From Geosiphon pyriformis uo1 (taxonomy: Eukaryota; Fungi; Glomeromycota), in NCBI GenBank assembly GCA_016748015.1, contig JAAOMT010000054.1, positions 124,001-188,000 of the forward strand: DNA of 64,000 nucleotides, given 5' to 3'. This document shows positions 1,016 to 35,863 of this stretch, piece after piece (positions within the stretch are counted from its first letter, which is position 1; each line of letters starts with the position of its first letter). Position numbers and translations under genes: made by a program. Under the pieces are notes generated by a model. The model worked only from the letters and a program-made list of their open reading frames with translations, made no database searches and was not told where the DNA came from.

Positions 1016-1714
1016 TGTTACAGTTGAAACTCATAGTTTTTATTAGTTATCACATATATTAGCCATTAATGTCATGTAATTAGCCAACCTATTTTTAGAT
1101 AGTAATCATTGACCTGATCAATGACCTGACCATTGACTTGATCATTGACCTAATCATTGATCTGATCATTGATCTGGTTATTGACCACTTTTCATAGCTA
1201 TATAAGCAATGAGTCTCTTAGCTGTAGAAAAGTATGTTCCCAACAATTAAAGAAATATAATAAAACAACTTTCATCTCAAAAATTTTCTTATTGCTAATT
1301 TTCCTTTCCCTATCTTCAAGTATCTAAACATCTTTTGGATAAAAAATCTCTTGTTGGTGTTTATCTGCCTTTTCCTGAAATGATTAAACAAAGTATTTGA
1401 AGATTATTGAATAAAACATAACTGAAGAGCACATCTGATACTTGATATTGAATTCTAAGAGCACTGACATAAGGCATAGAATTATACCAAGTGTGATCAT
1501 TTGTTAACAGTATGGACTATCTCTCTACCTTCAGATTCTCCGGTTACCTTTGAAAAATATAGTGACTAAAATATTTTATGAGACTAATCTTGCACATTGA
1601 ATCCATACTTATTCAATTTGCTCTTTGAAGTTGAATTCCTCTTTGATTATTTCCATCACCCTACAATCCTGTTCTCCTTTGCTATCCATTAGCTTGTTAC
1701 TCCAACCCATAACA
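1016..1714 (+). repeat. 5' LTR of A1
   Basis: Direct repeat of 8043-8777, followed by the PBS. Confidence 0.95.
1105..1205 (+). promoter_or_regulatory. U3 array of ~6 x 13-bp ATCATTGACCTG(A) repeats followed by a TATATAA box (family A LTR promoter)
   Basis: Repeats are visible in A1, A2 and A3 LTRs, with variable copy number. TATATAAG at 1199-1206. Promoter role is inferred from position. Confidence 0.6.
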
Positions 1715-1720
1715 TAAAAG

Positions 1721-1739
1721 TAGTGCTCTCTGTGAGGTT
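1721..1739 (+). promoter_or_regulatory. Primer-binding site, complementary to the 3' end of elongator tRNA-Met
   Basis: TAGTGCTCTCTGTGAGGTT; window consensus TGGTGCTCCCTGTGAGGT. Reverse complement CCTCACAGGGAGCACCA resembles eukaryotic elongator tRNA-Met 3' ends (recalled, not searched). Confidence 0.75.
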
Positions 1740-1766
1740 GTCAAAATTTACTTATTTCCTCATTAT

Positions 1767-3317
1767 ATGAGTGATTATTCATATCTGCCATAGCAATCAG
1801 AAGAACACTTTGCAGCACACAACAGAAATAATTTAGACTTTATTGAACTTAATCCTTTGCCTTTCTGCTTGATCTGCTTTCCTCTTGAAGAACAATCTAG
1901 TAAACAATTCCAAGACTTTTAGAACTGGTTCCTAAACAAGCACTCAGCTGAAACCTATACAGCATATACAACTTATTACTTTGACCAAGCTTATTTTGAA
2001 GACAACTTTGAAAAAAGAAATAATAGCAATCAGCTTTTATACTTCACAACTTTCACACAACAGCCCCCTGATTTCGAATATTTGAATCACCAAATACACA
2101 TTTGGGTTGCTGCTTATCAATCAACTATAACTCTCCTTGAAACAGAAGAAGAAAGTTACCAAACTGCTCCTATTTATGATCTCTTTTTAAGTGAATCAGA
2201 ACATTCCACTCAAACAGTAACTCCTGAACCAATGGCCCAAGACCCCATGCAAGGAAACATTCTGGCCGTCCTTCAAGGCATACAAACTGCTTTGGGGCAA
2301 AGAAACAACACCCCACTACTCTTATTTAGAGGTGATGCTCAAGATCCAATTGAATAGTTGAACGATTTTGAAAAAGCAGCCACTGTAAACCAGTATGATA
2401 ATGAATACAAGTTCCAAATTGTTAGTGGTTACTTCCAAGGCTCCCCTGCTACCTGGTTTTTACAAAAAACCAATGCTGGTGCTCAACAAAAAATTGTTAG
2501 ATGGATCCCAGCAAATATTGAAAAAAACAACACCTCTTTTACTACCTGGTTTGAAAACAAATTCAGAATCCCCATCTTAATATCCAAATGGCATATGGAA
2601 TTAGAAAAAAGAACCCAAGGTCTTGGTGAAGTTGTGACTGAATATGCCAAAGCAATCAGAAAACTCATCAAGCATGTAGACTCTGGTAGAAACTGGACTG
2701 AAGAGCAAAAGATCTACTCCTTCACAAAAGGATTGAGAACTAATTTATTGTATGCTCTTTGGCCTTTTTTGGCTTTAAAAAATAATCCCACCATGGATAT
2801 GACCATTAAACTCACCCAAAGAATTGAAGACAATCAAAGAATGCATTTGGAATCCACACTTCCAGTTTTTGCTCCTGCTCCTGTTATGGCTTCTACTCAT
2901 TAAATGACTGCTACTTCTTTTGTTGCCCAGACACAAAATCCAAATGAACAATTAATAGATAGACTTACAGCAAATCTTGCTTGGCTATTAGAACCATTAG
3001 TCCAAGCAGTCAGAGATAACTAGCAACCATAAAGACTCAGATTTAAAAACCGTTTTAATCAGCTCCAGCAACCCCCTTACCAAAAACAGCAAAATTATAG
3101 CCCTTCTGTGTGTTATAGATGTGGATTAACTGGACATTTCTCCAGAGATTGCAACAATCCTCCTTTGCCTCCTCCAGCTCCCAGAAACAATGATAACCAA
3201 AACAACAGAACTATTAACAACAATGCCCCCAATCAAAGACCTAATCATGTCAATATCAATTTCTTTGGAGAGGATCCCCTAATTAAAGCCACTGTTTATT
3301 AGCCTTTAAACTGATAG
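1767..3317 (+). pseudogene. gag: gag of A1 (N-terminal domain, retrotransposon capsid, CCHC knuckle)
   Basis: ATG 1767 is in frame with ORFs 2082, 2358 and 3108. FRGDAQDPIEWLNDFEKAA, QGLGEVVTEYAKAI, CYRCGLTGHFSRDC. Internal stops come from transitions. Confidence 0.9.
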
Positions 3318-3347
3318 GCGCACTTCCAAAAAGTGAGAGTGCAAGCC
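3305..3347 (+). promoter_or_regulatory. -1 ribosomal frameshift signal (U UUA AAC + downstream hairpin)
   Basis: Heptamer at 3305-3311 is in the correct phase, gag stops just after it, and the -1 frame is the pol frame. Same at 50962-50968 in A2. Confidence 0.8.
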
Positions 3348-5998
3348 AACCAGAAGAAAACCTCTTTTATGCTTTTAACTTAACTGATAATGACCATAAT
3401 ATGGATGAACTAGCAATTAACACCTCAAAATCAACAAGGAAGAAGAAGAAAGCCAAGGTTGATTTCGTTTTAGATCTAAATAAACTATCCACATCAACTG
3501 CTGATAATAATGAGCCACCAAAGACTAAAATCATTAAGAATTCTCCAAAGTTGAAATCTCCAGAAATAGTACAAAAATCTGGTTCTTATTCTGTTGTCAA
3601 AGATCTCATAGAAACTCCTGCACACATTACCTTTGGCCAACTAATGACCCACCCACAATTCAGAAAAGATCTCCACAAATCTCTAATTCCCAAGAAGAAA
3701 ACACCAAAAACCAATAAACACTCTTGCCAAGCTAGACTTGCTGACAACAGCAATGTCACCCCATTAATTTGCAAAGCCCAAGTGGCTGGCTATTTTATTG
3801 ACTTGATCCTAGACAGTGGATCATCTGTTAGCATCATTGCCAAACACTTTTTGAAAGCAATTGAAAGAAAGATTGATGAACCTTCCACCCGACCAATAAC
3901 CAATATACATAGTAACAAGAAGAAAGGTTTGGGTATAACCAAAGCTGTTTCTGTCCATATTAATGGCATCAGCATTGAAACTGACATGGAAGTTTTTGAA
4001 ATCAAGGAATACACTATTATTGTTGGAAATGAATGACTCAAAAAAACCAAAGCATTACTTGACTATGAACTTTGTGAACTAACCATCAGATGTGATGAGA
4101 AGCCCATTGTAGTTAAGTGTTGCCACTGGACAACCCCTTCAACACCAAAACAGAATCAGGAAGAAGAACAATCAGAGGAATCAGATGATAAAAAAAGTGA
4201 TAATAAAGAAAAACAAGAGAAACAAAAAGAAACTGCTAAACTTGTCTATACCACCTTCACCAGCAATGGCAAGCCACTGGACAATGTCAAAGCTGACAGA
4301 AAAGGAATCATTGTAAATAGCAAGCTAATCTGCTGGCCCTACTATGATATCCTAAGAAGAACTTTTGACCAGAAGCCTAACAAGAAAGCCAAGTACTGTT
4401 ATTGGTGGCATGGTTCTTGTGCCCGGTACTGGTGTAACCAACTCTTGTATTCTCCAAGTGATGAATACAAATCATGCCTGATCTATTACAAAGATTGGAA
4501 ACCAATCAGTTTAATACCTAGAGAAGAATTGAAAGAAGTTTAAAAGTTTTTTGAAAATGAACCATCTGAGATCCAATCACTAGTTGTAGAACAAAGAGAA
4601 CTCTTTTCAGAAAAAAGAAAAATAGACATTGAAAATCTGCTGGCTAGAAACAGCCCAGTTATCTCAAAAGAAGGTAATACTTCTGGACAAACTCATGTAA
4701 TACAACACACCATCACCACCAGAGAAACTTGCCTCATCCATTTGAAGCCATATCAATCCAATCGGCACAATGATGAGTTTATCAAGAAAGAGATAAACCA
4801 GATGAAAGAACTTGGATTCATACAAAAAACCAAGAGTGAATAGGCTTTTCCAGTTGTAGTAATATCCAAGAAAGGTGGAACCCTATGCTTCTGTGTTGAC
4901 TACCGTCAATTAAATACTATCACTAAAAGAGACATGTACTCACTTCCCAAGATTGATGCAATGCTGGACCAATTCAAAGATGCTGCTTTCTTTTCAACCA
5001 TTGATCTAACTGCTAGATTCTGACAAGTAGAGATAGATCCAGAAAGCCGGAAAAAAACCACCTTCATCACCAAGTATGGCACCTATGAATTCACAGTCAT
5101 GTCTTTTGGTCTTACCAATACTCCTCCCATCTTTCAATACTTAATGGATAAAGTATTTGAATTAGTGAAAGAAAACTTTGTTTTGGTCTATTTGGACGAT
5201 ATAATGGTGTACTCAAAAACCTGGAATGAACACCTTGTACATTTGCAAAAGGTTTTTGATTTTCTCAGAAATGCAGGTCTCAAGATTAACCTGATCAAAT
5301 CTTTTTTTAGAAGACAATCCACCCAATTTCTTGGTCATCTTATCACAAAAGATGGAATTTTTCCTGACCCAGCTAAGATTGAAAAAGTCCAGAACATTAG
5401 ACAACCAATGAATATTCATGAACTATGCTCTTTTCTTGGTTTGGCTTCTTATTATCACAAATTTGTCAAGAATTTCTCCAAAATAGCTGCTCTACTTAAT
5501 CAGCTACTCAGGAAAAACGTCAACTACTATTGGAGCACACACCAACAAAAAGCTTTTAAAACTCTAAAGGAAAAACTAATCACTGAACCAATTCTGAAGC
5601 AACCTAATCTAGATCAACCTTTCATCCTCCATACTGATACATCTGGCTATGGACTTAGAGCTGTTCTATCCCAAAAAGATAAAAATGGCAAAGAACATGT
5701 CATAGCATATGCCAATAGAACTCTCTCACCAGTAGAGCAGAACTACTTGGTAACTGAACAAGAATGCCTGGCAGTAGTATGGGCTACTAGTTATTGGAAC
5801 AAATATCTTTTTGGTGCCAAATTCCTGGTAGTAACAGATCACCAAGCTTTGGTTTGGTTACATAACAAAAAGAAGCTGGAACATAAAAGAATAACTCACT
5901 GGATACTTCACTTGGATGAATTCGACTATGATATTCAACATTGCAAAGAAGCACATTATCAAAATGCTGATGCTCTCTTTAGACTTACCATCCAGTGA
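3305..5998 (+). pseudogene. pol: pol of A1: aspartic protease, acidic/Cys-rich linker, reverse transcriptase, RNase H (no integrase)
   Basis: LILDSGSS, FCVDYRQLN, MSFGLTNTP, VYLDDIMVYS, LHTDTSGYG, TDHQAL, NADAL..LTIQ-stop. Confidence 0.93.
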
Positions 5999-6063
5999 CA
6001 GTACAATTACCTTAAACCAAACCAACCTAATTATTAGTAATTCTCTCACAACCAAACACGATA

Positions 6064-7375
6064 ATGGACTTGGACAACTATTCTGCCTTAATGGAATTTT
6101 TGGGTAAAGGACAATACCCACTGGAATACAATCAACAGCAAAGAAAACATTTGCATAAACAATCAAATTTCTATTTGATCTGCCAGAACCAACTATACAA
6201 AAGAAACAAAAAAATCCTGACTGCCCCCAGAAAGTCATAAGATTTGAAGAAAAAAAAATTGTGATCTACAATATGCACACTGATCCATTAGCTGGACACT
6301 TTGGAAAAACAAAAACAATTCAGAAAACCTTAGCTCACTATTATTGGCCTACCTTGGAAAAAGACATTGCTGAATACATTAAAACCTGCGATACCTGCCA
6401 AAGAAGAGGAAAACCCAATTGCAAAAAAAATATCCATCCAATTTCTGTTGGTCAACCATTTGACAGAATTGGTATAGATGTTGTTGGACTTTTAATAGTA
6501 ACTCTTGATGGCAACAGATACATCATCACAGCTACTGACTATTTTACAAAGTGGGTAGAAGCAAAAGCCATCCCAGATCAAACAGCAGTCTCAATAGCCA
6601 ATTTTATTTATGAAGATATCATTTGTTGTCATGGCTGCTCCAAAGAACTATTATCTGATAGAGGAAGAGCTTTTCTTAATACACTGGTTGAAGAACTTTG
6701 TAGAAAAATAGAAATACATCACAAACTTTCTTCCTCTTATTACTCCTAAACAAATGGCCTAGTAGAACGTTTCAATAAAATACTATGTGAAACCCTAGCC
6801 AAAACAAGTAAAGAAACAAACTTATGAGACAAAGTACTGCTTTCAGCTTTGTTTGCTTATAGAACTGTGAATCATAACATAACAAGTTATGAACCTTTTT
6901 ATTTGCTCTATGAATGAAGACAACACTATTAATAGAAACTGATATTAAGACAATATCCTTTGAAGCGATCACAATAGGGAATTACAAAGACATTTTACAA
7001 AGGAAACTTGGTACCATTCTTGACTCACTTGTAGAAGCACGAATAATTGTCTTTGAAAAGATAAAACAGTTTCAAGAAAAGCTTAAAAAGAAGAAAACTT
7101 ATAAAATACTTTTTTTAAGTATTGGTAACTTAGTTTTGGAATACCACTCAGACAAAGACAATGTCTATGGTAATAAATTCTCTAGCCAATGGAAAGAACC
7201 CTTTATAGTCAACAAAGTTTTAAACAATAGTTCTTATATTCTTCAAAATCAATTCAGAACAATCTTTAATGATCGTCTTGTTTATGGCACATGACTCAAG
7301 AAATATCACAAATGACCTGATTGGTTACCAGTTATAGTAATACTGACCCAAATGATCAGCAAAAACCAAGTATAA
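6064..7375 (+). pseudogene. Stand-alone DDE integrase ORF of A1 (HHCC, rve core, GPF/SH3-like C-terminus)
   Basis: ATG 6064 lies 65 nt after the pol stop. H-TDPLAGH..CDTC, IGIDVVG, TDYFTKWVEA, LSDRG, NGLVERFN. A few small indels. Confidence 0.9.
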
Positions 7376-7416
7376 ATAAATGCACCATTCCCAAAACAGA
7401 GGTATCTTCAATTGAC

Positions 7417-8073
7417 ATGAACAATTATTTTCTGGATCAAAACATTCAAAACGCTTTCTATACTTTTTATGAGTATTGGATTAAAAACTATCCAAATGCT
7501 ACTCTAACTATTGGAAAACAAACTACAATAACTGACAACAGTGGAACACATACTGTTATCAGACCAAAGAAAACAACTACCAGAAGAGAAAAAATTGGTA
7601 GCAAAATGGATAAGTATCTGTTGGAAAGCATAACAGCAGTAATACTTGTATCTTCCACCACAATTAGAAAAATGATTAAAAAAATCTTGCCCATAGACAA
7701 AAACTTGTCATATGGAAAACAACTAGAGCTCTATAGTCGCCTTGGTAAAATCATAAAAGACATGAAGCTCATAAAGAAAACAACTTCTGAGATACAAGTA
7801 GAAATTTTGGACATTATATGATTGGATGTCCCAAAAGTTTTGATCATTGCCAGAAGAGCCAAAACTCTTATACAAAGGTTTGGTCTCTTGGATACAAAGC
7901 TCATTTCATCTTAAGTACTATACACTTTATCCACAAAAAACTTTAACAAATTAGTTAGTTTTGAGTTAGATAAAACTCTTCAATTAGAATATCCCATAAA
8001 TAGTTTGATTTTGCCAGAGCTCAATCTCTTTGGAGAGGATAATGTTATGATTGAAACTTATAGTTTTTATTAG
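7417..8073 (+). pseudogene. ORF3 of family A (~218 codons, unknown function, env position, runs into the 3' LTR)
   Basis: Same frame as ORF 7321-7821. Conserved in A2 (56430-57086), A3 (58962-59592) and A4 (~21709-22366). Confidence 0.75.
8032..8042 (+). promoter_or_regulatory. Polypurine tract of A1
   Basis: GGAGAGGATAA immediately before the 3' LTR TGT. Confidence 0.8.
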
Positions 8074-8777
8074 TTATCACATATATTAGCCACTGATGTC
8101 ATGTAATTAGCCAACCTATTTTTAGATAGTAATCATTGACTTGATCAATGACCTGACTGTTGACCTGATCATTGACCTGATCATTGACTTGATCAATGAC
8201 CTGACCATTAACCTGATCATTGACCTGATCATTGATCTGATTGTTGACCACTTTTTATAGCTATATAAGCAATGAGTCTCTTAGCTGTAGAAAAGTATGT
8301 TCCCAATAATCAAAGAAATATAATAAAACAACTTTCATCTTAAACATTCTCTTATCACTAATTTTCCTTTTCCTACCTTCAAGTATCTGAACATCTTTTG
8401 AATAAAAGATCTCTTGTTGGTGTTTATCTGCCTTTTTCTGAAATAATTAAACAAAGTATTTGAAGATTATTGAATAAAATGTGACTGAAGAGCACATCTG
8501 ATACTTGATATTGAATTCTAAGAATGCCAATGTGAGGCATAAAATTATACCAAGTGTGATCATTTGTTGACAGTATGGACTATCCCTCTACCTTCAGATT
8601 CCCTGGTTACCTTTGAAAAGTATAGCGACTGAGATATTTTATGAGACTGATCTCACACATTGAATTCATACTTATTCAATTCATTCTTTGAAGTTGAATT
8701 CCTCTTTGATTATTTCCATTACTCTACAATTCTGTTCTCTTTTGCTATCCATTAGCTTGTTACTCCAACCTGTAACA
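8043..8777 (+). repeat. 3' LTR of A1
   Basis: Direct repeat of 1016-1714; ends TGTAACA then the TSD. Confidence 0.95.
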
Positions 8778-9141
8778 ATATCAGATTGGCAAAGCTATAT
8801 GTTAAAAAAAAAGTTCCAGAAGAAACTGTCAAGGCCTTTGGTGAGAAATCTTATGCCAAAATGGCTGTACTTAGACTGCCTCATAATTTGAACAACACAA
8901 ATTCAAACAGACTTCAAAGACCTGGTCTACAAGTAAACAATAAAGAAATACAACTGAAAAAAGAGGTTAACCAATCATAGAAGGCTGAAATTAATGAGTT
9001 AAGACAGCAGGTTAATAAAATGGCCAAACTGCTGAATGCAGTAGCTACTAAACTTGGAGTAATAGTGGAAAAAGAAAAAAACATAATAGTTACTTAACAA
9101 CAAAATCACATTTCAGAAAAAAAAAAAGAGATAGAAAATAG
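8778..9141 (+). mobile_element. L-A copy 1 ORF1, continuation after the A1 insertion
   Basis: IRLAKLYVKKKVPEETVKAFGEKSYAKMA matches L-A2 at 45173-45540. Confidence 0.85.
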
Positions 9142-11550: not shown

Positions 11551-12424
11551 TGTTACTCATAAAATATAGAAAGTATATTAGCATATAAATTAGCCAATTA
11601 GGAATAGCTGTAGTAAATATGAAATTCCAGAATTTTACTTAAGAGGAATTGCAGAATTTCAGGAATTTCAGGATTCTTGTACAAAGAATTGCAAGATTCC
11701 AGAATTCCAGGATTCCTCTCAAAAAAAATTGCAGGATTTTAAGAATTCCAGGATTTCTGGTGTGAAAAAATGAGGAATTGAGAAATCTCAATTATGTATA
11801 TATAACAGTAGTGTTAGAAGCAAAAAAAGACAAAATTCTTTAGTTAGAGACCTTCCAGTTTAGATTTGATCTAAGCAATCTTCCACATCACAAATAAATA
11901 ATTATTCATTATCTCAATTCATTTGCCACTATCAACATTTCATGTTGATAGTAATTGATACTTAATCACACTGAAACAATAGCTTTTGATCATAGCTATT
12001 GATGGAATACTAACTTGTAATTACTTTTACTTGTTTTTTTATTTTCTTTTATTTTCTTTTATTTTCTTTTTTATTTCTTTGTTATTTCTTTGGTTTTTAC
12101 TAAATTAATTAAGAATTAAGCACTGAAATACAGATGTCATAGGGACTGGTAAAAGACCTGTGAAACAAAGGTAGAACACTCATAGATTTGAGAATAACTT
12201 ACCAAGAAAATTACTGGCCATCATGCTGAGAAAAAAATTCGACAAAACTGTAGTTTTGGGAAGCTATAGATAAAACCATCAATTAAATCTCTGTCTATTA
12301 TACAAAAAACTCCACACCAAAATTTTCAGAAAACACACCTTCAAATATTAACACCACATATCAACCAAGCACCAAGTTATGAGTTTGTTATTTGATTTGA
12401 GATTCCAAATAATTACCTGTAACA
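11551..12424 (+). repeat. 5' LTR of B1
   Basis: TGTTACTC..TGTAACA, repeated at 20803-21666. Contains a GGAATTCCAGGATTCC-type array (11622-11759), TATA (~11797) and AATAAA. Confidence 0.95.
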
Positions 12425-12426
12425 TT

Positions 12427-12443
12427 TGGTGCTCCCTGTAAAA
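12427..12443 (+). promoter_or_regulatory. PBS of B1 (elongator tRNA-Met type)
   Basis: TGGTGCTCCCTGTAAAA, 2 nt after the LTR end. Confidence 0.75.
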
Positions 12444-12486
12444 TATAATCCTACAAAAAACTGGTACCAACAACAGTCATTAAAAA

Positions 12487-15400
12487 GTGGCAGAATCAGA
12501 AAACATAGGAGCAAACCATTTAGGATTCACTAAATTCTTGTTTCAACAGTACAGCCAACAATTAGAATTAAACAATAACCACTTTCCAGCAGAATTCGCC
12601 TTTAACTTCTATGTCAATAATAAAATCACAGACTGCTTAGAAGGAACAGTTAACATTGAATTTGCAAAGAAAAATTTCTATACAGAATTATTTCAACATA
12701 CCAGCTTATCAAGAAACTACAGTTTCACACCAATCATCAGGGAAATCAATCAAACCATCGAAAGGTATACACAACAACAATTCCTCATTACCTATGCAGA
12801 CAAAGGCAAAAGAAGGTTGCAAACACCAGCAGTAACACCAAAACAAATACAACCATCCACTTGGAAGAAAACCAGAGTTGAATCACCAACAAAACTATCA
12901 TATCATTATACACTCAGAAGCGCCATCAATATCACATCAATAGACACATCCACATCACACATGACATCAATATTTGGACAACTCTTATTTCAAAGTAAAC
13001 AAAAAAAAGCAGAATTACTAGGAACCTATAGCAATTATTTTGAAAGATTTAAATTGCGATCACCAATGCCATCAGGATTCCGATCACCACTACTTCAACC
13101 AGATTTTGAAAACACGAGTCCCTGAGAAATAACAGAATCAAAAGAGAAAGAAGAAAAAGAAGCCAAATATTGGAAATTTACTTACCAGAACCCAATTTTA
13201 GAAAACCTGAACATTGAAACCTCAAACTTTCAGACTTAGCAAAATCCAAATTTAAAAAATCTGAGAATTGAAACTCTGAACTTTTGAATCTCTCAAAATC
13301 CAAACAATACAAACCCCAAAACAATTAATCAACAAAACTTATCTTTAGTAATTGTTATTGATCAACCACTAATTGAACCGATTATTAAACCAATTTAACA
13401 GCAGTCACTTCAACTATCTCAACAACCACAACAGCCACTTCAACAGCTGCAACAACAAGTTCAACAACCAAACTTGGATCCAATGGCCTATGCTCCAATA
13501 GCAAAACTCGAGAAATTTACCAGTGAAGAAGATAATGCCCAAATATGACTCAATGACATTAAAAAAACCATCATGGCCAATGAATAGAACAACATGAGAG
13601 CACTCCAAGCCATCCCCTATTTTTTACAGAATACTACCAACTTGTGGTATCAAAGTTTAGTCGCCAAATCTTAGACATTTCAGGAATTCAAAGTTGCTTT
13701 CCTGAGATATTTCAGTAATAATAACAGTATTAATTGCCTAGTCAACATTTTTATCACAATCAAACAAGGAGAAACTGAAGCAGTTACCACTTACTTGGGA
13801 TGCTTCCACCAAAATTTGTGCTAAATTTAAACAATCCAAGCTGATTATTTTACAGTGTCTCAGATTCTAAACCAGTTTATTCATGAATTGCACAGTAGCA
13901 TTCTTCAATGCATATGTCCAATGCATCCAGCAGATCTTCAAGCCACTGTAACAAATGCCAGAGATTTTGAAGCAGCTGAACTCGAAGCTAACCATGCCCA
14001 AGCCATCAATCTAGTAATGAACGGATCATCTAAATTGGATTCTAAGTTGAAACAATTTAGTGATTCTATCAACCAAAAATTAGAGGAATACTTAGCTAAC
14101 AATCAGGCAATTTATTAACCTCCACAATAATGCAATAATCAAGGAAATGCAAATCATTTTCAGAATCAGTTGTATCTATTATTCTCGACCAATCAATAGT
14201 GGCAGCAAGAGACATGTGTTTACCACTACTGTGGTAAAAAAGGGCATTTAAGGGTTGATTGTAGGTTAAAGATAGATAACCAATGATTAGAAAATCAATA
14301 TTGAAACTCTGATTACCAGTTTCCAACTCTGAATTACCAATCCAACCCAGCACCATATCAACCAACTTACCTGCCAATGACACAACAGCCAATATATCAA
14401 CCACCCATATATCAACCTCCAGTTTATTAACCACAGCCATCAATAATATATCAACTACTGCAGCCACAAATAATTTATCAGACACCTGCAGTTCAAACAT
14501 CACCATCCAACTCAGCTCAAATGACATCAGAAAACTTCAGATCAAGAGTTACCCAAAACTGAAGATTGGCAATGGTTGTTCACCAACCAATTTTCAGTCA
14601 TTCAACCAGCTGTTAAGATCACAACAACAGAGTTCAGAAACCAGGTATACTCAAAACCTGAGTTCCCAGAACTATTTAAGTCTCCTAATTACTCTAGAAA
14701 ACACCCAACCCAATAATCTGGAAACCAACCAACAATTAACACTTACCAGCAATATTCCACCAGCTACTATCACTGAGAACGAATCATTGGATGCCATTTT
14801 TCCATTTAAACTCAAGGAACTGTCAGCCATGCTGTTATTTAGTGAAGCCATTCTCGAAAAAAAACCTATTACCATCATATACACCAATGCCAAAGTTGAT
14901 GGCCACCCAATCAAACTAATTTTAGACAGTGGATCAGCCAGCAGTATTATCACAAGACAACTCATGGACCAGTTAGATTGCTAAGTTGATTGAGCTGCCA
15001 GCACACAAATCATTACAGCTAATGAAGTAACCAAAACTCTAATTGGCAAGATTGATGACTTTTCTATAGAAGTCAACAGCATCATTGTGCCAATCAAAGT
15101 ATTAGTCATGGAAGCCACTCAATATCAAGTACTTATTGGCAATGACTGGCTGTTCAAAACCAACGTGATGTTTGATTGAAACACACAAAAGCTCCAACTC
15201 AGCCAAAATAGTCAACACACATGAGTACCAGCCACATGTGGCCATTTCAAAACACCCAACATGCCAGCATCTCTTATCAAGTTTGAGAAAAAAAAAAAGA
15301 AACCTACCTGGAAAGCATACCAAGTCTCATGGGCCAACAAAGACCACAATGAGTTACCACTAGTACTCTCATGGGGCAACAACAGAAAAGAAAAGAAAAA

Positions 15401-18400
15401 AGAAAAACCTACCTGGAATTCTGACCAAGCCTGGGGAACCAATAACAACCAGGAAGAGCTAATAGATTAAGAATGGAAAGAAAAGACAAAAGAAAAAAAA
15501 AGAGAAAAGAAGAAGGATCAATATTCACTAGCACCACCACTTATAATTTCTACACTATATCACAGCAATCTGCTTATTGCTGTCCAAAACTGGTATGCAT
15601 TGATTGTGACAAGAAATTGTTGTCAATGGGTGCTTGCTGTGGCAATAATAAGGAATACCAAATGACAACCAAGTTTTACTGTTACTCATGTGTTATAGAA
15701 TGTTTTGAAAGACCAAAATGAGTGAGAAAATGAGATAATGAGCTGTGCTTGGCTTGTGGGGAAACTCTTCTTGATAAAGGAATGTGGAATAACATTTCTG
15801 GAAGGGAAAGAACATGTAACAAATTGTGCCAATACACAATTTTTATAAGCAACTGGGTGAGAAAAAAAACACCCATAGATGCTGCCTGAAAATGTGCAGT
15901 CAAATGATTGGATGGATGTCCACACAATGATGACAAAATCTGGCAAATAGTACTCACCAAAATTGAAGAAGCATTACCAGAAAAAATAAAAACAATTAAA
16001 AATAACCCATCTGAATCCATAAAACTTGACTGGGATCCAGAACCAGTCATAAATCCATTAGATCCAGAACAATTCTATGAACACTATCAGGAATTAGCAC
16101 CCACTAGAAAGAAACAAGAGCAATGGTTGAAAGAAATCAACACTCAACTATGTGACTATTGTTTAATTTCCTGTGACTTTCAATATTGTAATGAATGTGA
16201 CCTTATTTACAATCTACCAATCCACATGATCTATACAATTCCAGAGGAAGAAGAACCAATTAGCAGCTGCACATCAGAATTGGAATCAAATTTCAATCCT
16301 GATTCAAACTCCGACAATAATGATAACAAAAACAACAGTTTCAGCTCTGCTCTAAATAGCAACAAAAATTATGACAATTCAAACTCCAATTCAAATCTTG
16401 AAACATTTATTGCACTTTCTGACCTCATTAAGGAACAGAAACTTAAATAATTCAGTAATAATAGTGAAAATATTATGCCAGAACACATATATGATACTAA
16501 TGCAGAATTTGATCTGAGATATCCAGAGAAAAATGCCATAAAATTGGAACCCCATTTGTGCACCTGCATTGATTTCAAAATAGCATTGGAAATTCCAGCA
16601 ACAACAATGGTTCAGTTAGCATCTAGAAGTAGCTTAGCCAAAAAAGGAATCAACATCAGAGGAGGAATAATTGACAAGAATATGTAAGAAATATTATTGC
16701 TATGCTACAAAATGACTCAGAAAAAGCATATATTATAGATCTAAATGAAAAGATAGCACAGACAATATTCCTACCTCTGGTAAAAATAGCTCAGTTAGTG
16801 TCAGTAGAAATCAGAGAAGAATTAGGGATTACTGCTAAAAGGATACAGAGATTCGGATTAATGAGTAGAATAAACATACCAGTTAATATAGCAGAGGAAG
16901 AGGTTATTGACAAAAAAGAAATTATCTTAACCCATCAATCAATTTTCATTCCACCATATGATCAGTATATGTTAGTCATAAAAAGAGAAGTAAAAGATCA
17001 AACTCAGTTGTTTGAAGCAGAAGCCACCATTTGCAAATCAGGAGAGATTGAACTTACTAATCTCTACATATCAGCCAAAAGCCCCAAAAACATCAAAATT
17101 TCTATCTACAACACAATGAAAAATGTCATTGAAATACCAAAGGGAACTATCATTGGATATTTAACCACTGAAGTTGAAGATCAACCACCAGACCATATTC
17201 CAGATTTTCCACAGCTTTGCAGATATGTGGACATTACATCACAAATCATCTATGGGCGAAAGAAATGTTATCTGCTCCAACCAAAACAATTGGAACAAAT
17301 AAACATAGAGAATCTAGACTCACTCTAACAGATACAACTAAAGATATTACTTAGCAATTTCAATGACATCTTTGCTAGTGAAAATAAATTTGGCCACACC
17401 AACATCATCCAACATCAGATTAAGACTGGAGATACAATGCCAATTAAACAAAAAGTATACAGAGTACCACCAGCTAGTCATATTCATCAAGAAATCAATT
17501 GGATGCTTGACAACAGACTAATTTAGCCATCAATGAGTCTATGGTTATTACCAGTGGTATTAGTCTAAAAGAAAAATGGAAAAATTTGCTTTTGTGTGGA
17601 TTACTGGAAACTGAATAGAGTAACCAAAAGAGACAGCTATCCAACTTCAAAGATCCAAGAACTATTTGACACTTTTGGAGGAAATAAATGGTTCTCAATA
17701 TTAGATTTAGATAGTGGTTACTAGCAAGTAGCCATGGATTCAGCCGACAAAGAGAAAACAGCATTTACCATAAAAGAGAGAAATTTTGAATTTGAAGTTA
17801 TGCTATTTGGCTTGATAAATGCTCCAGCAACATTCCAATGGCTCATGGAAATTGTTTATACTGGATTATTGTGGAAATCAGTAGTTGTTTACTTAGATAA
17901 CACAAATGTGTTCTCAAAAACATTCGATGATCATTTACACCATCTCCAATAAGTATTTGAAAAACTCAGATGAGCAGAATTGAAACTAAATGCCAACAAA
18001 TGCTTTTTTGGAAAAACAGAACTAAAATTCTTGAAACATGTTGTAAGTAAAGATGGCATCAAAACAGATTAAAGTTGTTAAGAACTTTCTAGTACCAAAC
18101 AATCTCACAGAACTAAGAGCATTTTTGGAATTTGCAGAGTACTATCACTGCTTTATCAAAGACTTTTCTAAACTGGCCCAGCCACTTCATTATTTACAAA
18201 CTAAAAATGTGAAGTATGAATGGACAGAAGCTCAATAAAAAGCATTCAACACACTAAAAAAAAAGCTTATTTAAGCTCTAGTGTTGATGTATCCAGATCA
18301 CAACAAACCATTTATCATTACCACCAATGCATCAGGCCAGACATTGGGAGCAGTACTATTACAGAAAAGACCAGATAAAAGAAAACATCCAATAGCTTAT

Positions 18401-18682
18401 GCCAGTAAAAGCTTAAGTCCAACTAAAAAAAACTATGGAACACCAGCATTAAAACACTTAGCAATCTATTGGGCAGTCATAAAATAGAAAGAATACTTGA
18501 GCCAAAAGTTTGAAATATATATGGATCACAAAAGATTGACCTCAATTCAGAAGCAAGAATTTGGAGATGACCACCATGTCAAATAGAAAATAGAACTTTC
18601 ACCATTCAATTATATAGTACATTATAAAAAGGGAAAAGACAATGGAAATGCTGATGGATTGTCGCAAATAAGACAAATCTAA
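12487..18682 (+). pseudogene. gag-pol: B1 gag-pol polyprotein (N-extension, capsid, CCHC, Q/P/Y repeats, PR, Cys-rich domains, dUTPase, RT, RNase H)
   Basis: MAYAPIAKLEKF capsid start, LILDSGSA, VVVYLDNTNVFS, IITTNASG, NADGLS..RQI-stop. A few indels; colinear with B2. Confidence 0.9.
16475..16866 (+). pseudogene. dut: dUTPase domain within B1 pol
   Basis: AEFDLRYP (motif 1), ASRSSLAKKG (motif 2), GGIID (motif 3), EKIAQ (motif 4), decayed GFGS (motif 5). Confidence 0.88.
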
Positions 18683-18712
18683 AAACATTTCAAACCAAAA
18701 ATATAACAAAAG

Positions 18713-20089
18713 ATGAATATACAAAAATACCAACAACTTTAACATTATATAAATATCCAATTGTTCAAGGAGAAATTATCTCAACAGGAACAAAAAAACA
18801 TAAAACAAAAATTAAAATATTTTATCAACCATTAAAATATACTTTACTGGAAGAACAAAAGAAATCCAGATCAACCAATCAAAGTAATCATTGAACCAAA
18901 AAAAGAGACAGTACTATTTAACATGCATTCAGATCCAACAGCAAGACATTTTCATAAAGAAGCAATCATGGAAAAAACCAGAAAAAGATACTATTGGCCA
19001 TCAATGTATCTGAACATTATTTAATACATTCAAAGTTGTGATGCTTGTCAAAGAAGAGATGGAACCAAACCCAGTGAACCATTAAGACCAATCAAAGTGG
19101 AACAATCATTCAACTGTATTAGAATTGATTTAGTCGGACTATTAACAATCACCAGCAGAGGCAACAGATATATTGCAATAGCCATAGACTATCTTACAAA
19201 ATGGCCAGAAGCAAAAGTCATTCAAAAAGCAGATGCAGAATCTGTTGCTGAATTTATTTATCAAGACTTGATATGTCGACATGGATGCCCAAAAGAACTA
19301 CTATCAGATCAAGGAACTCACTTTGTAAACAGAATATTGACAGAACTAAGTCAAAAATTTGGAATTAAAAGACCATTGTCATCATCATACTATCTACAAA
19401 CCAACAGATTAGTTAAAAGATTCAATAGAACACTGTGTAAAACAATTGCCAAAATCAGTCAAAAAAACCAGGACAAATAGAACTTGTTTATATCATCAAT
19501 ATTATTTGCTTATTGGACAATGAAGCAAGACACTACACAAGTAACACCATTTGAATTAGTATATAGTAGAACAACAACATTACCAGTTGAAATAGAAGTC
19601 AATACTTATCCAACAAAACCAATAAATGAAGACAATTTTCAGGAAATGTTACTAAGAAAAACATATGACTTAATGGAAACACTAGAAAACAAATGACGAA
19701 GAGCAGCTGATAATATTCAAAAGTCACAAGAAAAACAAAAAAAAAGACATGATAATCAACTATCAGAGAAACCAGTTGGATTCAAAATTAGAGACAAAGT
19801 GCTTCTACATTATACCAAAGTGAAAAAACAATAGAGTAGGAAATTTGACCCCAAATGGGATGAATCATTTCACATTAAAGAAATTCTTAAAAATAGAGCT
19901 TATAAATTAAGATGGGACAACAAAATCTTAATCAAAGCAGCACATAGTGATTGACTGAAACCATATTATCATATAGTGTCACCATCTACCAATAATATTC
20001 CACAATTGGGAATACAAAAAATACTAATTCAACCAGATAAGATTTCATGAGATCTGGAACCAATCATAATCATTGGACCAAACACATAA
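18713..20089 (+). pseudogene. Stand-alone integrase ORF of B1
   Basis: ATG MNIQKYQQL.. after two TAA codons. HSDPTARH..CDAC, IDLVG, DYLTKWPEA, LSDQGTHF, KFDPKWD. Confidence 0.9.
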
Positions 20090-20119
20090 AGTTGAACAAT
20101 AAAGAAAGTATATAAAGAC

Positions 20120-20788
20120 ATGGCAGACATGACAAAAGACTTCAAAAAAATAGAAATTACTGACAACATCTACTCACTAGCACAACAACTCTTCCAATTG
20201 ATTCAACAACAGAATATAGAAATTACTATCAATCAACAAACCATTAGATACCAAAATACTAAAAAGACATCCAAATACAAAAGTCAAAAGAAAACAGAAA
20301 ACACTATTGACAAAATGGTGTTGAAAATAAAATTAGCAATAAAAGAACCAATAAGTATCAACATATATCAAGAGTTGATTAAAGAAACTTGGAAATGGTG
20401 GATACACGAATTTCCAAAGAACTTTTGTTATTTCTACTTGGGAAGACACTTGAATATTCAGAACTTATACATAGATAAAACAAAACGATTATTTGACACA
20501 ACAATACTGCAACAACTAGAACAATTTGTGAGAAAAAACAATATAACAACACAAATAAGAGCCATCTATTGATTGCATGCTGGATTCCAAAACAGATCAG
20601 AAGTTCTACTTAATCTGAAAATGAACTCCATTACAGCTAACCAAATGGGAAAAATAACCAACACCCAATTTAAAGAATTACAAACCAAAATAACACAAAT
20701 AATTCTCGAAAAAGAAGTTCAAGAAATACTTTAAGAAAAAGAATTAGAGTTAAGAGATTTGAGAGATCTCGACAGAGCTTAATATTAA
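20120..20788 (+). pseudogene. ORF3 of family B (~220 codons, unknown function)
   Basis: ORF 20120-20572 plus in-frame continuation to the PPT. Homologous copy at 43550-44209. Confidence 0.75.
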
Positions 20789-20802
20789 AAAGAAGAGAAT
20801 AA

Positions 20803-21666
20803 CATTACTTATAAAATATAGAAAATATATTAGCATATAAATTAGCCAATCAGGAATAGCCATAGTAAATGTGGAATTCCAGGATTCCTTTCAAGAGAAA
20901 TTGCAGGATTCCAGGAATTTCAGAATTCTCATACAAGGAATCGCAGGATTTCAAAATTCCAGGATTTCTCTCAAAAAAAATTGCAGAATTCTAGGAATTC
21001 CAAGATTTCTGGTGTGAAGAAATAAGAAATTGAGAAATCTCAATTATGTATATATAGCAGTAGCATTAAAAACAGAAAGAGACAGAATCCTTTAGTTAGA
21101 GACCTCCCAGTTTAGATTTGATCTAAGCAATTTTCCACATCACAAATAAATAATTATTCATTATTTTAATCTATTTCCCACTATCAACATGAAATGTTGA
21201 TAGTAATTGATACTTAACCATACTGGAACAATAGCTCTTAATTATGGCTATTGACGGAATACTAACTTACAATTGCTTTTACTTGTTTCTTTATTTTCTT
21301 TTATTTTATTTTTTATTTTTTTGTTATTTCTTTGGTTTTTACTAAATTGATTAAAGATTAAGCGCTGAGATACAAATGTCATAGGAACTGGTAAAAAACC
21401 TGTAAAACAAGAGTAGAACACTCATAGATTTGAGGATAGCTTACCAAGAGAATTACCAGCCATTATGCTGAGAAAGAAATTTGACAAAACTGTGGTTTTG
21501 GGAAGCTACAAATAAAACCATTAATTAAATCTCTGTCTATTATACAAAGAACTCTACACCAAAACCTTCAGAAAACACACCTTCAGATATTAACACCACA
21601 TATCAACCAAGCACCAAGTTATGGGTTTGTTATTTAATTTGAGACCCCAAATAATCAACTATAACA
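20803..21666 (+). repeat. 3' LTR of B1
   Basis: Direct repeat of 11551-12424, preceded by the purine tract AAAAAGAAGAGAATAA. Confidence 0.95.
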
Positions 21667-23065
21667 GTGGCTAATTTATATGACATCAATGGCTAATACA
21701 TGTGATAATTAATAAGAAGTGTAGGTTTCAACCATAACATTATCCTCTCCAAAGAGATTGAGCTCTGACAAAATCAAGCTATTCATGATGTAATCTATTT
21801 GAAAAGTTTTATTTAACTCAAAGTTAACTAGTTTGTTGAAGTTTTTTGTGGATAGGATATATAATACTTAAGATGAAATGAGTTTTGTATACAAGAAACC
21901 AAATCTTTGTATTAGAGTTTTGGCTTTTTTAGCAATAGTTAAAACTTTTGGGGCATCTAACCATATAATGCCCAAAATTTCTGTCTGTATTTCTGAAGTT
22001 GTTTTTCTTCATGAGTTTTATATCTTCTATAATTTTACTAAGGCAACTATAGAGTTTTAATTGCCTTCTATATAACAAGTTTTTGTCTATGGGTAAAATT
22101 TCTTGGAATGTTTTTCCAATTGTGCTGGAAGATGGGAGTATAGCTGCTGTTATACTTTCCAACAGATATTTATCCATTTTGCTACTAATTTTTTCTCTTC
22201 TGATAATAGTTTTCTTTTGTCTAATAACAGTATGTATTCTACTGTTATCAGTTATGATGGTTTGTTTTTTAATGGTCAGAGTAGCATTTGGATAGTTTTT
22301 GATCCAATACTTATGAAGAGTATAGAAGGCATTTTGAATGTTTTGATTCAGAAAATAATTATTCATATTGATTGAAAATACCTCTGTTTTGGGAATGGTG
22401 TATTTATTTATACTTGATTTTTGCTGATTATTTGAGTTAATATTACCACAACAGGCAACCAATCAGATTATTTATAATATTTCTTGAATCATGTACCATG
22501 AACAGGATGATTATTGAAGATTGTTCTGGATTGATCTTGAAGAATATAAGAACCATTGTTTAAAACTTTGTTGACTATAAAGAGTCTTTTCCACTGGCTA
22601 AAAAATTTATCACCATAGACATTGTCTCTATCTGAATGGTATTTTAGTACTAAGTCACCAACACTTAAAAAAAGTGTTTTATAAGTTTTCTTTTTCTTAA
22701 GCTTTTCTTGGAACTGTTTTATCTTTTCAAAAGCAATTATTCATGCTTCTATTAAGAAGTCAAGAATGATATCAAGTCTTCTTTGCAAAATGTCTTTGTA
22801 ATTTTCTATTGTGATTTCTTTAAAAGATATTGTTTTAATGTCAGTTTCTATTAGTAGTGTTGCCATGCATCCATAGAACAAATAAAAAGGTTCATAATTT
22901 GTTATGTCATGATTTACAGTTCTATAAGCAAACAAAGTTGAAGGCAGTACTTTGTTCTATAAGTTTGTTTCTTCACTGGTTTTGGCTAGAATTTCACATA
23001 GTGTTCTATTAAAACATTCCACTAAGCTATTTGTTTAGGGGTGATAAGAGAAAGAAAGTTTATGA

Positions 23066-24035
23066 TGTTGTCATTAGCAGAATTTTAGCTATTAATTAGC
23101 ATAAAATTACTCTCATAATTCCTATTATTAATTAGTATATATTATTATTATTTCGAATATTACTTATTATTTAATCAAATTATCAAATATTATTACTCAA
23201 TTAATAATCTGATTTGTACCATAGAAATTAAGATAATCAAATTACACAATACCCTGAACCATTTAATATAGTCAAATTTGCTGAAATTAATAAAAATTGG
23301 CCGAAATAATCAATAGTTCAGTGAAATAACTTGCAGTTTGCTAAAATGTATCTTTAGTTTACCCAAATTGTAGCAAAAAGAAAAGTGCAAGTTCAAAAAC
23401 TAGTACTATAACAAGTTGTATAAAAGAAGAGCTTCTTTCTTCAAGAAAATGTATTTTCTTATAGTATTTTAACATAGTATCTCACTTTAGATATCTTAAT
23501 TAGAACAAATCATTTTTTACATATTCAAATAAAAATTAAATATTCAAAAACCAAATTCTTTGATTATTGCACTTCAAATTCCCTTAACACAACTAACATT
23601 TCAAAATTGATTAGCTATCAATTTTAGTAATTTGTTAGTAATTCTAAGTCTGGATAGAAAATGTTTCTCTTGATAAATTTTATTTTTTTTATATTTTTTT
23701 TATTTATTTTTCTTTTTTATTACAATCATTAAGGTAGTCTACAAACAAAATTTCTGTAGAAGAGTTGACTTTCACAGCAAAGTAACTACACATTTTTAGT
23801 GAGCTTTTAGATGAGCAATTTCTAAGAAAGAGTTAATGTTTACTACAATGTAACTACATAAAGTAACTGGCAAGAAATTGGCCATTTCACTTATAAGCCC
23901 AGCAGTTTAAATTATAAGAGATAATTTGAAGATAAATTCAGTTACTAGAGATCCAACTACTTCCTGAGAATGTGAATTCACAGCAAATTAACATTAACAA
24001 CATTCAAGAAAAGAGACCAAAAACCTCCTGTAATA
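23066..24035 (+). repeat. 5' LTR of C (partner not visible)
   Basis: TG-start, decayed TGTAACA end abutting the PBS, TATAAAA at ~23419. No second copy to confirm it. Confidence 0.7.
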
Positions 24036-26406
24036 TTTGGTGCTTTTCTATAGAAATAACACAGCAACAACAAATTCAAAGTGGCGACCATATCAAACAC
24101 AACAACTCTAAAGTATTATCAGCAATTTATACTTACTGCAAGCAAAGATTCAACATCCCAGATGGAATTGAAGTTGTCAAGAAATCAGTATACCAATATA
24201 TTGAAAACTGTATTAACAATTATCTTTTTGGAAACTACAACATTTTAGAAGTTAGAAGCAACCTTTACAATAATTTAGTGCATTATTCACAATTAAAAAC
24301 AGAAGACCTGAACAGTGAAACTCTTGCAACCTACTTCCAAAAACTTAACTTTAGCATTATTCAGTATTGTAAAGAAAAATACCCAGTACAGGCTAGATAC
24401 TCTATTGACTTTGAATCAGAAACAGAAACAAGCAACAAAGGCAAACAAAAACTAAAGCAACATTCAAACACCACTCCAACCACCCCAAAGACACCAAAAA
24501 TAACTGCCAAAAACTTGCAAATTTCAGAACAAAGAACTAGCACCAGACTTTCACTCTTAGTTACACTCTTTTTAATTTTATTTGCTCAATCACAAACACC
24601 AAATTTATTACTTATCCATTTTTCAAGACCAAAAGATTTTCAGTTATCCAAAAATTCTATTCAATAGCAGGAACTCATATCAACCAGCACCAATATTATT
24701 GATTACCTACAAAAAAACAAAAGTAATTATTCAGAGAACTTGGAAAGTAAGAAAACTGAATCAGAACAAAAAAAAACTACAGAAAATAAAAAAAAATAAC
24801 AACTGCTTATATTGCAAAAATCCCAAAATTTACTGGTAAAAATAATAATACCAGTCCTTAAGAATGGCTTGATAAAGTCCAGAAAACAGGAGATGCAAAT
24901 GGTTGAAATACAGCAAGAATGCTCAAAACAATCTCATACTTTCTCCAAGAAACTACAGAAGAATGGTTTGAAAACTTAGAAAAACCATTTAGAAACTGGC
25001 AAGCATTCAAAGATGCTTTCTTACAACAATTCACCAACAACAACACCTCTATTACTCTCTGAAATTGCTTTCACAATATCAAACAAGAAACATCTGAAAC
25101 TGTTATGACCTATCTGGGAAGATTCAACAAACTTCTTTGACAAATTCGACAATTGGAAACCAATGAATTCTATTTTAATGCCCAGATTTTGAATCAGTTT
25201 ATAGCAGAATTAAAAGACAAATTAATCAAGAAAGTTCACCCACATGTCTCAGAAGACTTAGCAGCAGCCATTAGACATGCAAAAAATTATGAAATAGTAA
25301 TAAAAGAAGCCAATCATACTAAACTTGTAAATCTTGCTATTGGAGAAACTAGCTCAACAGCTGAAAAAGAAATTGACCAACTAACAAAGAAGATTGAGAA
25401 CTATTTCACTAACCAGCAACAACAGCAACAATTACAAAGATATTAGCCACCACAATAATAAAACCAAAACAACTATTCATTTTCATTAAACAGCCAAAAC
25501 CAAAGTTGTTACTATTGTGGAATTCTAGAACATTGGAAACAAGATTGCAGAAAGCTACAAAGAGACCAACAAAACAAAAGTAATCAATGTTACTCTTCAA
25601 TACAGCAATTTTATTATCAGCCTCTACCACCAGCCTACTATTCTTCAAGACCTCAACAGCAAACCAATTACTATCAATCTGCTTTACAGCAACAATATTA
25701 ACAACTTTCACCAATTTGACAGTATTAGCCATCTACACAACAATATTAAGTACCAGCCTGAAGATTGGTTCAACATAACCAATTTACATCTCAAAATCAA
25801 TTTTAGAATAACAACAACAGAATCAACTCAATAACCAGTTAGTTCTCTGAAATTCTGGTTAGCAAAGACCCAATCACTATTACACTCAACCCAATTATCT
25901 TACAATGTCTGAAGGATCAAATTTTTAACAAACTGTACTTTTTGAAGGTGAAGTTGCAGCACCAAAATCAAACCCTTCTAACAATACTATTTCACCAGCT
26001 CAAATTGCTCAAAATACCAATCTCTCAGATATATTTCCATTTAAATTTGAAGCCAATGAATCACCATTTTTGTTTAGCAATACAGCAGTCAATAAACAAA
26101 AAACAATTACAGCAATATATACTAAAGCTAAAGTTAAAGGAAAACCAATTTGGTTAATCTTAGATAGTGGATTAGCTAGAAGTATTATTACCTACTAATT
26201 AATGCAACAGCTTTAAAGAACTGTTAACAGGCCAGCCCAAACTGTCATTGTTACAGCAGATGGGATGAAAAAGACACCAATAGGAGAAATTAACAACTTT
26301 TTATTTACAATTAATGAAATCACCATTCCAGTCAAAGTTTTAGTCATGAATGCACCACAATACCAAGCTCTTGTTAGAAATAATTGGCTTCTCAAGGCCA
26401 ATGCAA

Positions 26407-28852: not shown

Positions 28853-29899
28853 GCCAATGCAAATTTAGATTGAGAAACCCAAAAATTGAAGATTTTATAC
28901 CAAGGACAATATACTAAAGTACTTGCCACTTGTAGCACTTTTAATAAAAAATCTGAGAAAGCTTCAGTATTCAAATTTGAAAAAGAAAAAGAACTACTAA
29001 TTACTGAAATCTTTATGGCTCTTGGATCAACATCCAGTTGGGCTAAGAAAACAGAACAAGAAATCTTTGAGAAGACCAGAAAATAAAATGTAATTAGATA
29101 TTCTACACCAGAACCATGGAAACAACCACCTTATATTCCACTCAAATACAAAGATTGCAACAAGAAACTTTTATTAATGAGAGCATGTATTTCTCCAGAA
29201 AAAGAATATGAAACTCACACCTACTACTTTTGCAAAGCATGCCATAAAGAACGATTTGGATATTCCAAAAAGAGTGAAAAATGGGACAACACTCTTTGCC
29301 TTACATGTGAAGATATACTACCAGAAGAATGCAACTGGATTAATGTTGCAATAAGAGGAGGAGTATGTAACCAAATCTGCCAATATGCCCTATTAATTTC
29401 GGAAAAAGTTAAAAGAGGAACACTTTTTAATGTAGCATACAACAGTGCTTTTAACAAACTTTACTACTATCTTTATAATGCTAAAATGATCTTTGATTTA
29501 GCAATAGCTTTAATTAATAAAGCCATACAGAAAGATGTCCAACAAATGAAAGAAGCTAAGTACATTAAATACACAATAAAATTAGCTAGATTCAACTATA
29601 AAAATGAAGTAAAGACATACCACCAAATTGCAAGCCACACATATTCAAACCAAGAAGCTCAAATTCAATAAATAAAGCAAATAAACATTTAATTGTGTAA
29701 AGAATACATCATGCCTTGTGATGACAAATAGTGTCCAAAATGCTATGCTTTTAGCATTCCTCTGCCCAGTAAAAATAACCAAAAAGAAATTGAATTTGAG
29801 AAACCAGAAACAAAAAAAAAATTGCAACAACACCAATTTATCTTACTGAAAACCAGCCTGCTATACAATTTAAATACTTTGACAACAATGGACAAGGAA

Positions 29900-35861: not shown

Positions 35862-35863
35862 TT

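Follow-up and report, generated by a model that had tools for sequence, protein, structure and literature searches.

In Ty3/Gypsy elements integrase (IN) is the C-terminal part of Pol, which explains its dosing and packaging. The window examined here, a stretch of 64,000 nt from Geosiphon pyriformis uo1 (contig JAAOMT010000054.1, positions 124,001 to 188,000), carries six copies of long terminal repeat (LTR) retrotransposons of families A, B and C in which IN is a gene of its own, separated from Pol by a stop and a new start. Comparison among copies and with intact relatives confirmed that this split is design rather than decay and is both fixed and lineage-wide. The split is genuine and gives Ty3/Gypsy organisation a new variant, for which we infer the mechanism of IN expression, and the six window copies are dead members of a Ty3/Gypsy-type lineage of Glomeromycota-like fungi. 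A large and successful lineage without Pol-linked IN needs another route for dosing and packaging this enzyme.

The Pol–integrase junction in the window and in intact relatives

As a preliminary description of the window had noted, Pol terminated 3–5 codons past the last RNase H (RH) motif in all six copies, and IN restarted 30–65 nt further on.

A1, plus strand: TGA 5996–5998, ATG 6064, 65 nt between
A2, plus strand: TAA 53653, ATA 53718, 62 nt between
A3, minus strand: TAA 61013, ATG 60946, 64 nt between
B1, plus strand: TAA 18680, ATG 18713, 30 nt between
B2, plus strand: TAA 42077, ATG 42143, 63 nt between
C, plus strand: TAA 32134, ATG 32194, 57 nt between

The three family A spacers were reproduced at the lengths first given, none divisible by three, so that frame is not preserved, and the A2 start has decayed from ATG to ATA. 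Frame is kept across the gaps of B1, B2 and C, but each of these also contains another in-frame TAA. The window has a GC content of 26–40%, is CpG-depleted (observed/expected 0.10) and is rich in premature stops, some common to copies, which would suit the explanation that the junction stops are C-to-T decay products of a fused Pol. TAA codons shared by both B copies numbered 0 of 341 codons in the reverse transcriptase (RT)–RH region and 0 of 429 in IN, shared TAG codons numbered one in each region, and in family A one of 499 codons was a stop in all three copies. Because premature stops are numerous in the window copies and a few occur in more than one copy, the window alone is no proof of design. 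The stop and the ATG nevertheless proved to be fixed in family A: among 491 contig pieces of run X1 covering positions 5970–6085, no alternative letter reached 4% at 5996–5998 or 6064–6066, a result that speaks to fixation in the family and is not an independent test, run X1 possibly being the source of the window. The same pieces showed 19 differences across spacer positions 6001–6052. With this fixation, and with the split present also in intact relatives without CpG depletion, decay of a fused Pol is scarcely credible.

Searched against longer proteins, the IN query gave 112 matches, the best 40 of which (39–66% identity, 344–491 aa) had no RT or RH domain, fused IN matches starting at rank 41 of 112 with at most 42% identity. 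Most stand-alone INs began at the Met of A1, which was invariant in 35 sequences. Among the 120 matches listed for the RT–RH query, 56 of the 60 with at least 47% identity carried no IN domain, and Pol relatives without IN either ended a few residues past RH or carried a non-IN tail. The named members of the split lineage are Rhizophagus. A metagenome scan (the best 80 of at least 599 stretches, plus one viral contig) provided 81 loci, of which 43 hold both the RH end and IN; 36 of these are split and seven fused, and RT–RH has no internal stop in 32 of the 36. Four proteins considered as true fusions (P0194, P0035, P0414 and P0415) were left uncounted as eukaryotic gene models, P0194 also having no RH end.

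In the 34 split loci with a start, the gap was −14 to −1 nt (n = 8), 5–93 nt (n = 17), 156–163 nt (n = 4) or 365–829 nt (n = 5), with the three frames represented 12, 10 and 12 times, and sister loci differed in gap length (L005 63 nt and L058 64 nt; L037 75 nt and L045 76 nt). These gaps bear on whether IN is still made within Pol through stop readthrough or frameshifting, which the in-frame gaps of B1, B2, C and L002 and the wholly fused relative P0210 might suggest. However, the gaps occupy all frames and vary between sisters, and readthrough contexts were seen upstream of RT in six of 16 loci but at none of the 36 RH-side stops, which excludes this route for most members and leaves it very improbable overall.

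The contexts upstream of RT, among the 16 loci checked, were in-frame TGA-CTA (five loci) or TAG-CAA-TTA (one), at L015:870, L026:902, L029:3290, L032:3358, L047:1585 and L034:929; in L032, where this was checked, the stop lies past the protease. Such a stop would likely serve Gag–protease to RT readthrough, at an unusual position. In L032 (1–9888), a complete element, the 435-bp terminal repeats are 97% alike and every frame is open, and the L032 Pol has a 587-residue tail followed by a 727-nt gap before IN. A P-loop kinase-like domain, recognised by eye and without a Pfam match, occurs at L064:181–972 and L070:2–637 and in the tails of P0185 and P0192; some elements have it fused to the Pol end, and in others it forms a gene of its own between Pol and IN. 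Together with the dUTPase of window families B and C and the Nudix domain of P0133, it suggests that nucleotide enzymes were captured repeatedly. P0429, a member of the IN family annotated in an archaeal metagenome-assembled genome, is probably fungal contamination.

Descent of the split lineage and its integrase

The RT+IN tree comprised 40 rows, all Gypsy-type and rooted on one plant row; seven were omitted (six near-duplicates and one long branch), and others fell below coverage. All 26 split rows clustered with one fused protein, P0210, at 92/97, and the sister of this group was formed by L053 and plant non-chromovirus-type elements (96/86). The nearest Ty3/Gypsy kin are the YPYY-bearing Athila/Tat-like group, a label that for the plant sister rests on host names and an extra RH domain. 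Approximately unbiased tests neither rejected a split-only clade for RT (p 0.72) or IN (p 0.24) nor demonstrated one. The RT and IN distances co-varied over 33 split elements (Mantel rho 0.68, 0/999 permutations), an agreement expected if IN was split in place and not imported. The RT–RH–IN order is retained and the clade is nested among fused Gypsy-type elements. P0210 (1023 aa, known as protein only) has RT–RH–IN–ORF3 in a single frame, ORF3 being the third gene of the split elements, and is nested among them, grouping with two split loci at 99/97; it is likely a re-fusion. We thus infer one ancestral fission, followed by re-fusion at least once (P0210).

IN evolves under purifying selection, with dN/dS of 0.035–0.18 in the seven unsaturated pairs out of 12, first 60 codons included. 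All 53 starts had D, E or N after the IN Met, compared with 27% D/E/N/Q after internal Met, a pattern that we take to be that of NatB acetylation. The conserved Met is the true IN start. The best solved-structure match of this H2C2/DDE/GPY-F integrase was Ty3 Gag-Pol (E 3e-53).

The preliminary description had further supposed, from the IN N-terminus and the TGT..ACA ends with 4-bp target duplications, that the elements could link Ginger DNA transposons with LTR retroelements. In having a separate IN of about 420 aa that combines YPYY, zinc finger, DDE and GPY/F, the elements do resemble Ginger1 and GIN1 (PMC2836005, excerpt; here and below, "excerpt" marks a paper available to us in part), but fused Gypsy INs have these features too, and six fused loci matched the IN N-terminal profile from columns 3–6. 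The YPYY motif of Ginger1 is present also in Athila/Tat, Cer1, Gypsy-1-I_RO and DGLT-A1 integrases (Bao et al., 2010, PMC2836005, excerpt), and TGT ends are common to Gypsy and Ginger (PMC2836005, excerpt). The Ginger link is unsupported because fused Gypsy integrases have the N-terminal motif as well. Unlike Ginger1, with which the elements were compared by description only and which has terminal inverted repeats of 40–270 bp and no RT, they have direct LTRs and RT–RH upstream of IN, and no OTU or Ulp1 Pfam family was found on 40 stand-alone INs or ORF3. None of four target duplications reads CCGG/CCGT, the Ginger1 type, though CpG decay could mask a CG centre in some.

Expression of the detached integrase

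The earlier view that the elements are polycistronic, with IN requiring a separate start of translation and a separate way into the particle, is supported, the split being fixed and lineage-wide. Among the routes that had been put forward (reinitiation, internal ribosome entry, or a subgenomic or spliced RNA), reinitiation fits best and splicing received no support. Judged from the sequences, termination–reinitiation would be the likeliest mechanism for IN, and we give it about an even chance. Pol would end past RH, and ribosomes terminating there would restart at the IN ATG on genomic RNA, directly where stop and start overlap and after short scanning across A-rich, AUG-poor spacers such as those in the window. 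More speculatively, cis binding to its own RNA might carry IN into the particle, by analogy with foamy virus Pol.

Reinitiation is favoured because of the overlaps, the AUG-poor spacers and, chiefly, the inserted genes whose ends fall on the IN start. Stop and start overlapped by −1 to −14 nt at 8/34 junctions, TAATG and ATGA being among the overlaps; 17/34 gaps lay within 100 nt and 9/34 were longer, and spacers of up to 200 nt held nine ATGs where 19.6 were expected. Inserted genes terminate on the IN start in L064 (263-aa kinase-like frame, −4), L051 (−1) and L022 (−4), and chained inserted frames do so in L038 (two short frames, −13 and −8) and L070 (−4 and −8). An insert ended on the IN start in three of the nine long spacers versus 0.1 by shuffling, in a test whose 40-codon cut was picked after the data had been seen. 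The IN-to-ORF3 junctions span the same range as the Pol–IN junctions. Coupled termination–reinitiation has precedents in SART1, CHV1 and HvV190S (PMC10275272, section 9, excerpt), with which the present elements share UAAUG and AUGA overlaps. Unlike in these systems, the gaps range from −14 to hundreds of nt, there are up to three serial junctions and coupling is here a prediction.

Besides that late choice of cut, several points weigh against this reading. The mechanism, including translation and transcript form, is read from DNA, and good start context, with a purine at −3 of the IN start in 45 of 53 cases against a background of 56%, and AUG-poor spacers suit a subgenomic leader equally. 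The window junctions do not overlap (30–65 nt) and have neither structure nor motif; five of 34 gaps exceed 200 nt; no open reading frame (ORF) ends near the IN start in L015 or in L032 (727 nt, 12 ATGs); and TGGGA, resembling what we take to be the core pentamer of a calicivirus-type termination upstream ribosome-binding site, lies upstream of just two of 36 stops. An ancient short RH–IN linker alone would place stop and start close together. After a −1 frameshift (family A) or readthrough, restart at 3–20%, the range given for caliciviruses (PMC10275272, excerpt), would yield little IN and less ORF3. As to the lineage, the loci are not independent (near-duplicates), metagenome repeat contigs are possibly collapsed family paths, and the split clade is not starred in the RT+IN tree, single-domain trees being less clear.

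A strong rival is that IN, with ORF3, is translated from distinct unspliced subgenomic RNAs, which internal promoters or processing of genomic RNA would generate. It would remove the low-yield problem and accommodate the long spacers of L015 and L032 without a coupled ORF, as well as the start context and scarcity of AUG mentioned above. It leaves unexplained, however, the inserted genes stopping on the IN ATG and the overlaps of −1 to −14 nt, and no common promoter-like sequence was found upstream of 53 starts, the hairpin subclade apart; we consider this route possible, though on the doubtful side.

In one IN subclade (15 rows, support 96; one change on the tree) the hairpin takes up about 40 nt of the stretch that separates the upstream stop from the IN ATG. 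It has 12 pairs, eight of them with compensatory changes, and 95% of cells paired, and 0/500 shuffles scored as high; its loop and bulge bases are conserved. Single-sequence folding of two hairpin loci was no better than that of shuffles, so that support for the hairpin comes entirely from covariation. The hairpin model, built from 14 of its 16 matches, matched 16 of 82 sources (L003, L004, L006, L007, L010–L012, L018, L019, L028, L031, L039, L040, L055, L057 and L061), in every case 5′ of the IN start; the window had no match. It had no match in Rfam, and the pattern was absent from the viral and prokaryote contigs searched. It ends 3–4 nt before the ATG in 11 of the 16 loci and 9–32 nt before it in the others, which is consistent with a subgenomic RNA whose 5′ end it would mark or protect in this subclade. 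Under reinitiation it could, speculatively, assist restart or loading; like the RNA structure that SART1 requires (PMC10275272, excerpt), it lies downstream of the stop.

Internal ribosome entry, in which A-rich unstructured spacers or the covarying hairpin would recruit ribosomes independently of Pol translation, is in keeping with the base composition of the spacers and with a conserved element beside the ATG in one subclade. This route is unlikely, as eight junctions have no spacer at all and, in five pairs that have one, the spacer was no better conserved than the flanking coding DNA. Spliced RNA could supply IN as it does env or foamy virus pol, and the family A spacers do have a branch-like site followed by TAG. 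In foamy viruses, which offer the precedent, the enzyme precursor is made apart from Gag and packaged through RNA (PMC3196705, PMC3705302, excerpts), but there the whole Pol including IN is separate, whereas here IN alone is detached. A branch site with YAG within 100 nt of the ATG was found in 17 of 50 cases versus 16.0 in shuffled sequences; after the last upstream ATG, AG was absent in 7/49 and YAG in 13/49; and the C spacer has no AG, all of which makes splicing quite improbable.

ORF3, classification and contents of the window

In intact elements the third gene, ORF3, encodes about 145–230 aa (543 representatives at E 0.001) and is predicted to form an all-helical domain of about 145 aa (pLDDT 93). 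No membrane span was found in it, the top 19-residue hydropathy being 1.29 across 17 members, which sets it apart from an errantivirus-like env. Fold searches of PDB and viral libraries matched nothing at E 0.001 (best Z 4.7), Pfam gave nothing above the cut-off, and there was no usable Atlas match. ORF3 is likely a detached C-terminal IN module, because it is fused C-terminally to IN in P0210, where the match to ORF3 reached E 2e-22. The window ORF3s of B1 (E 1e-14) and B2 (E 3e-9) matched that of L002, and A1 ORF3 matched the family of intact relatives weakly (E 4e-4, 18-sequence search); a deep ORF3 profile had no match in the whole window, the link consisting of L002 for family B and the weak targeted match for family A. 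The IN stop of family B is TGA in both copies (43523–43525 and 20093–20095), in frame with ORF3; family B may originally have had IN fused to ORF3, the shared TGA being explicable by CpG decay. Tentatively, the clade may possess an operon-like genome in which general coupling lets it cut Pol and chain new genes, with ORF3 as a detached IN module of new fold acting in trans (to direct targeting or to activate reinitiation) and, next to the IN start, a new RNA element tying IN synthesis to the loading of IN onto genomic RNA.

When compared with the ICTV criteria for Metaviridae, A1, A2, B1 and B2 have an internal region of 3–15 kb between two LTRs, a TGG-type primer-binding site (PBS) lies 2–6 nt past the LTR, a purine tract precedes the 3′ LTR, and Retrotrans_gag, Ty3_capsid and zinc knuckle were detected in gag. 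The elements further share with Ty3/Gypsy the order protease–RT–RH–IN and the H2C2/DDE/GPY-F integrase. The Metaviridae profile puts IN inside pol (PMC7879559), as does a fungal survey (PMC3248453, excerpt), whereas IN is separate in 6/6 window copies and 36/43 loci; because IN lies outside pol, the elements are filed as a Metaviridae variant, not as a canonical member. They also differ from Ty3/Gypsy in that a small gene without a membrane span replaces env, in lacking a chromodomain and in having inserted extra genes or domains (dUTPase, kinase-like, Nudix).

A separate IN gene is undescribed in the available text of PMC2836005, PMC11943222, PMC11952901, 10.1101/2021.03.30.436303 and PMC3248453, and the split layout goes unmentioned in the available parts of two surveys of these fungi. 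We found no published description of a separate IN, though Repbase, GyDB, subscription journals or supplements may hold one. Dozens of natural junctions in the lineage, which differ in showing overlap, short spacer, hairpin, inserted gene or re-fusion, could serve to test fungal reinitiation after long frames. For annotation, gene predictors seem to merge these genes in Rhizophagus, and an integrase standing alone could be mistaken for a DNA transposase.

The window consists of nested decayed transposons, namely the three LTR families (A1–A3 and a fragment, B1–B2, and C), pieces of long interspersed nuclear elements (LINEs) and a Tc1/mariner-like insertion.

1016–8777, plus strand: element A1, decayed full-length LTR retrotransposon; LTRs 1016–1714 and 8043–8777; 4-bp target duplication
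1721–1737, plus strand: A1 PBS-like sequence, 6 nt past the 5′ LTR
1923–3317, plus strand: A1 gag, broken, with Retrotrans_gag and zinc knuckle; terminates at a −1 slippery heptamer at 3305, then a likely pseudoknot
3305–5998, plus strand: A1 pol (protease, RT, RH); TGA 5996–5998, four codons past the last RH motif
5999–6063, plus strand: A1 spacer, 65 nt, A/C-rich, without ATG, unstructured (z +1.4), varying between family copies
6064–7375, plus strand: A1 integrase gene, starting at its own ATG, with YPYY-type N-terminus, H2C2 zinc finger and rve core
7417–8073, plus strand: A1 ORF3, broken, crossing the polypurine tract into the 3′ LTR
11551–21666, plus strand: element B1 with dUTPase; Pol stop 18680, IN ATG 18713, ORF3 about 20120–20810
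21666–23068, minus strand: family A fragment (IN 3′ part, ORF3, LTR start; junction absent)
23900–33850 (ends approximate), plus strand: element C with dUTPase; Pol stop 32134, IN ATG 32194
34985–45058, plus strand: element B2 with dUTPase; Pol stop 42077, IN ATG 42143, IN stop 43523–43525
48688–57769, plus strand: element A2; Pol stop 53653, IN start 53718 (ATG decayed to ATA)
58281–64000, minus strand: element A3, 5′ part beyond the window; Pol stop 61013, IN ATG 60946

The A1 LTRs are 91% alike, 61 of their 62 differences being transitions, and the A1 IN frame is disrupted by stops and two frameshifts. The A1 PBS-like sequence recalls what we take to be the 3′ end of elongator tRNA-Met. Although gag, protease, RT and RH had at first been described as one frame, family A has gag and pol separated by the −1 slippery site at 3305. 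Among the 120 matches listed for the B2 Gag frame, the 119 named proteins were all from Geosiphon pyriformis (56–84% identity), which by itself makes this glomeromycotan fungus the most likely host.

The A2 integrase holds a Tc1/mariner-like DNA transposon (about 53920–55276, minus strand) with inverted repeats of about 40 bp. One LINE family (RRM, zinc knuckle, endonuclease) hosts both A1 and B2 near the end of its ORF1, with copies at 6–897 and 8773–9140 around A1 and at 34082–34978 and 45166–48000 around B2, and the same family breaks up the 3′ end of element C, for which no LTR pair was found. The TGT..ACA termini and 4-bp target duplications of the preliminary description hold exactly for the A1 duplication; the termini are partly decayed, and the duplications of A2, B1 and B2 are one or two transitions apart. 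All eight target-site halves of A1, A2, B1 and B2 read N-T-purine-N, which either a decayed CG centre or a pyrimidine–purine preference would fit.

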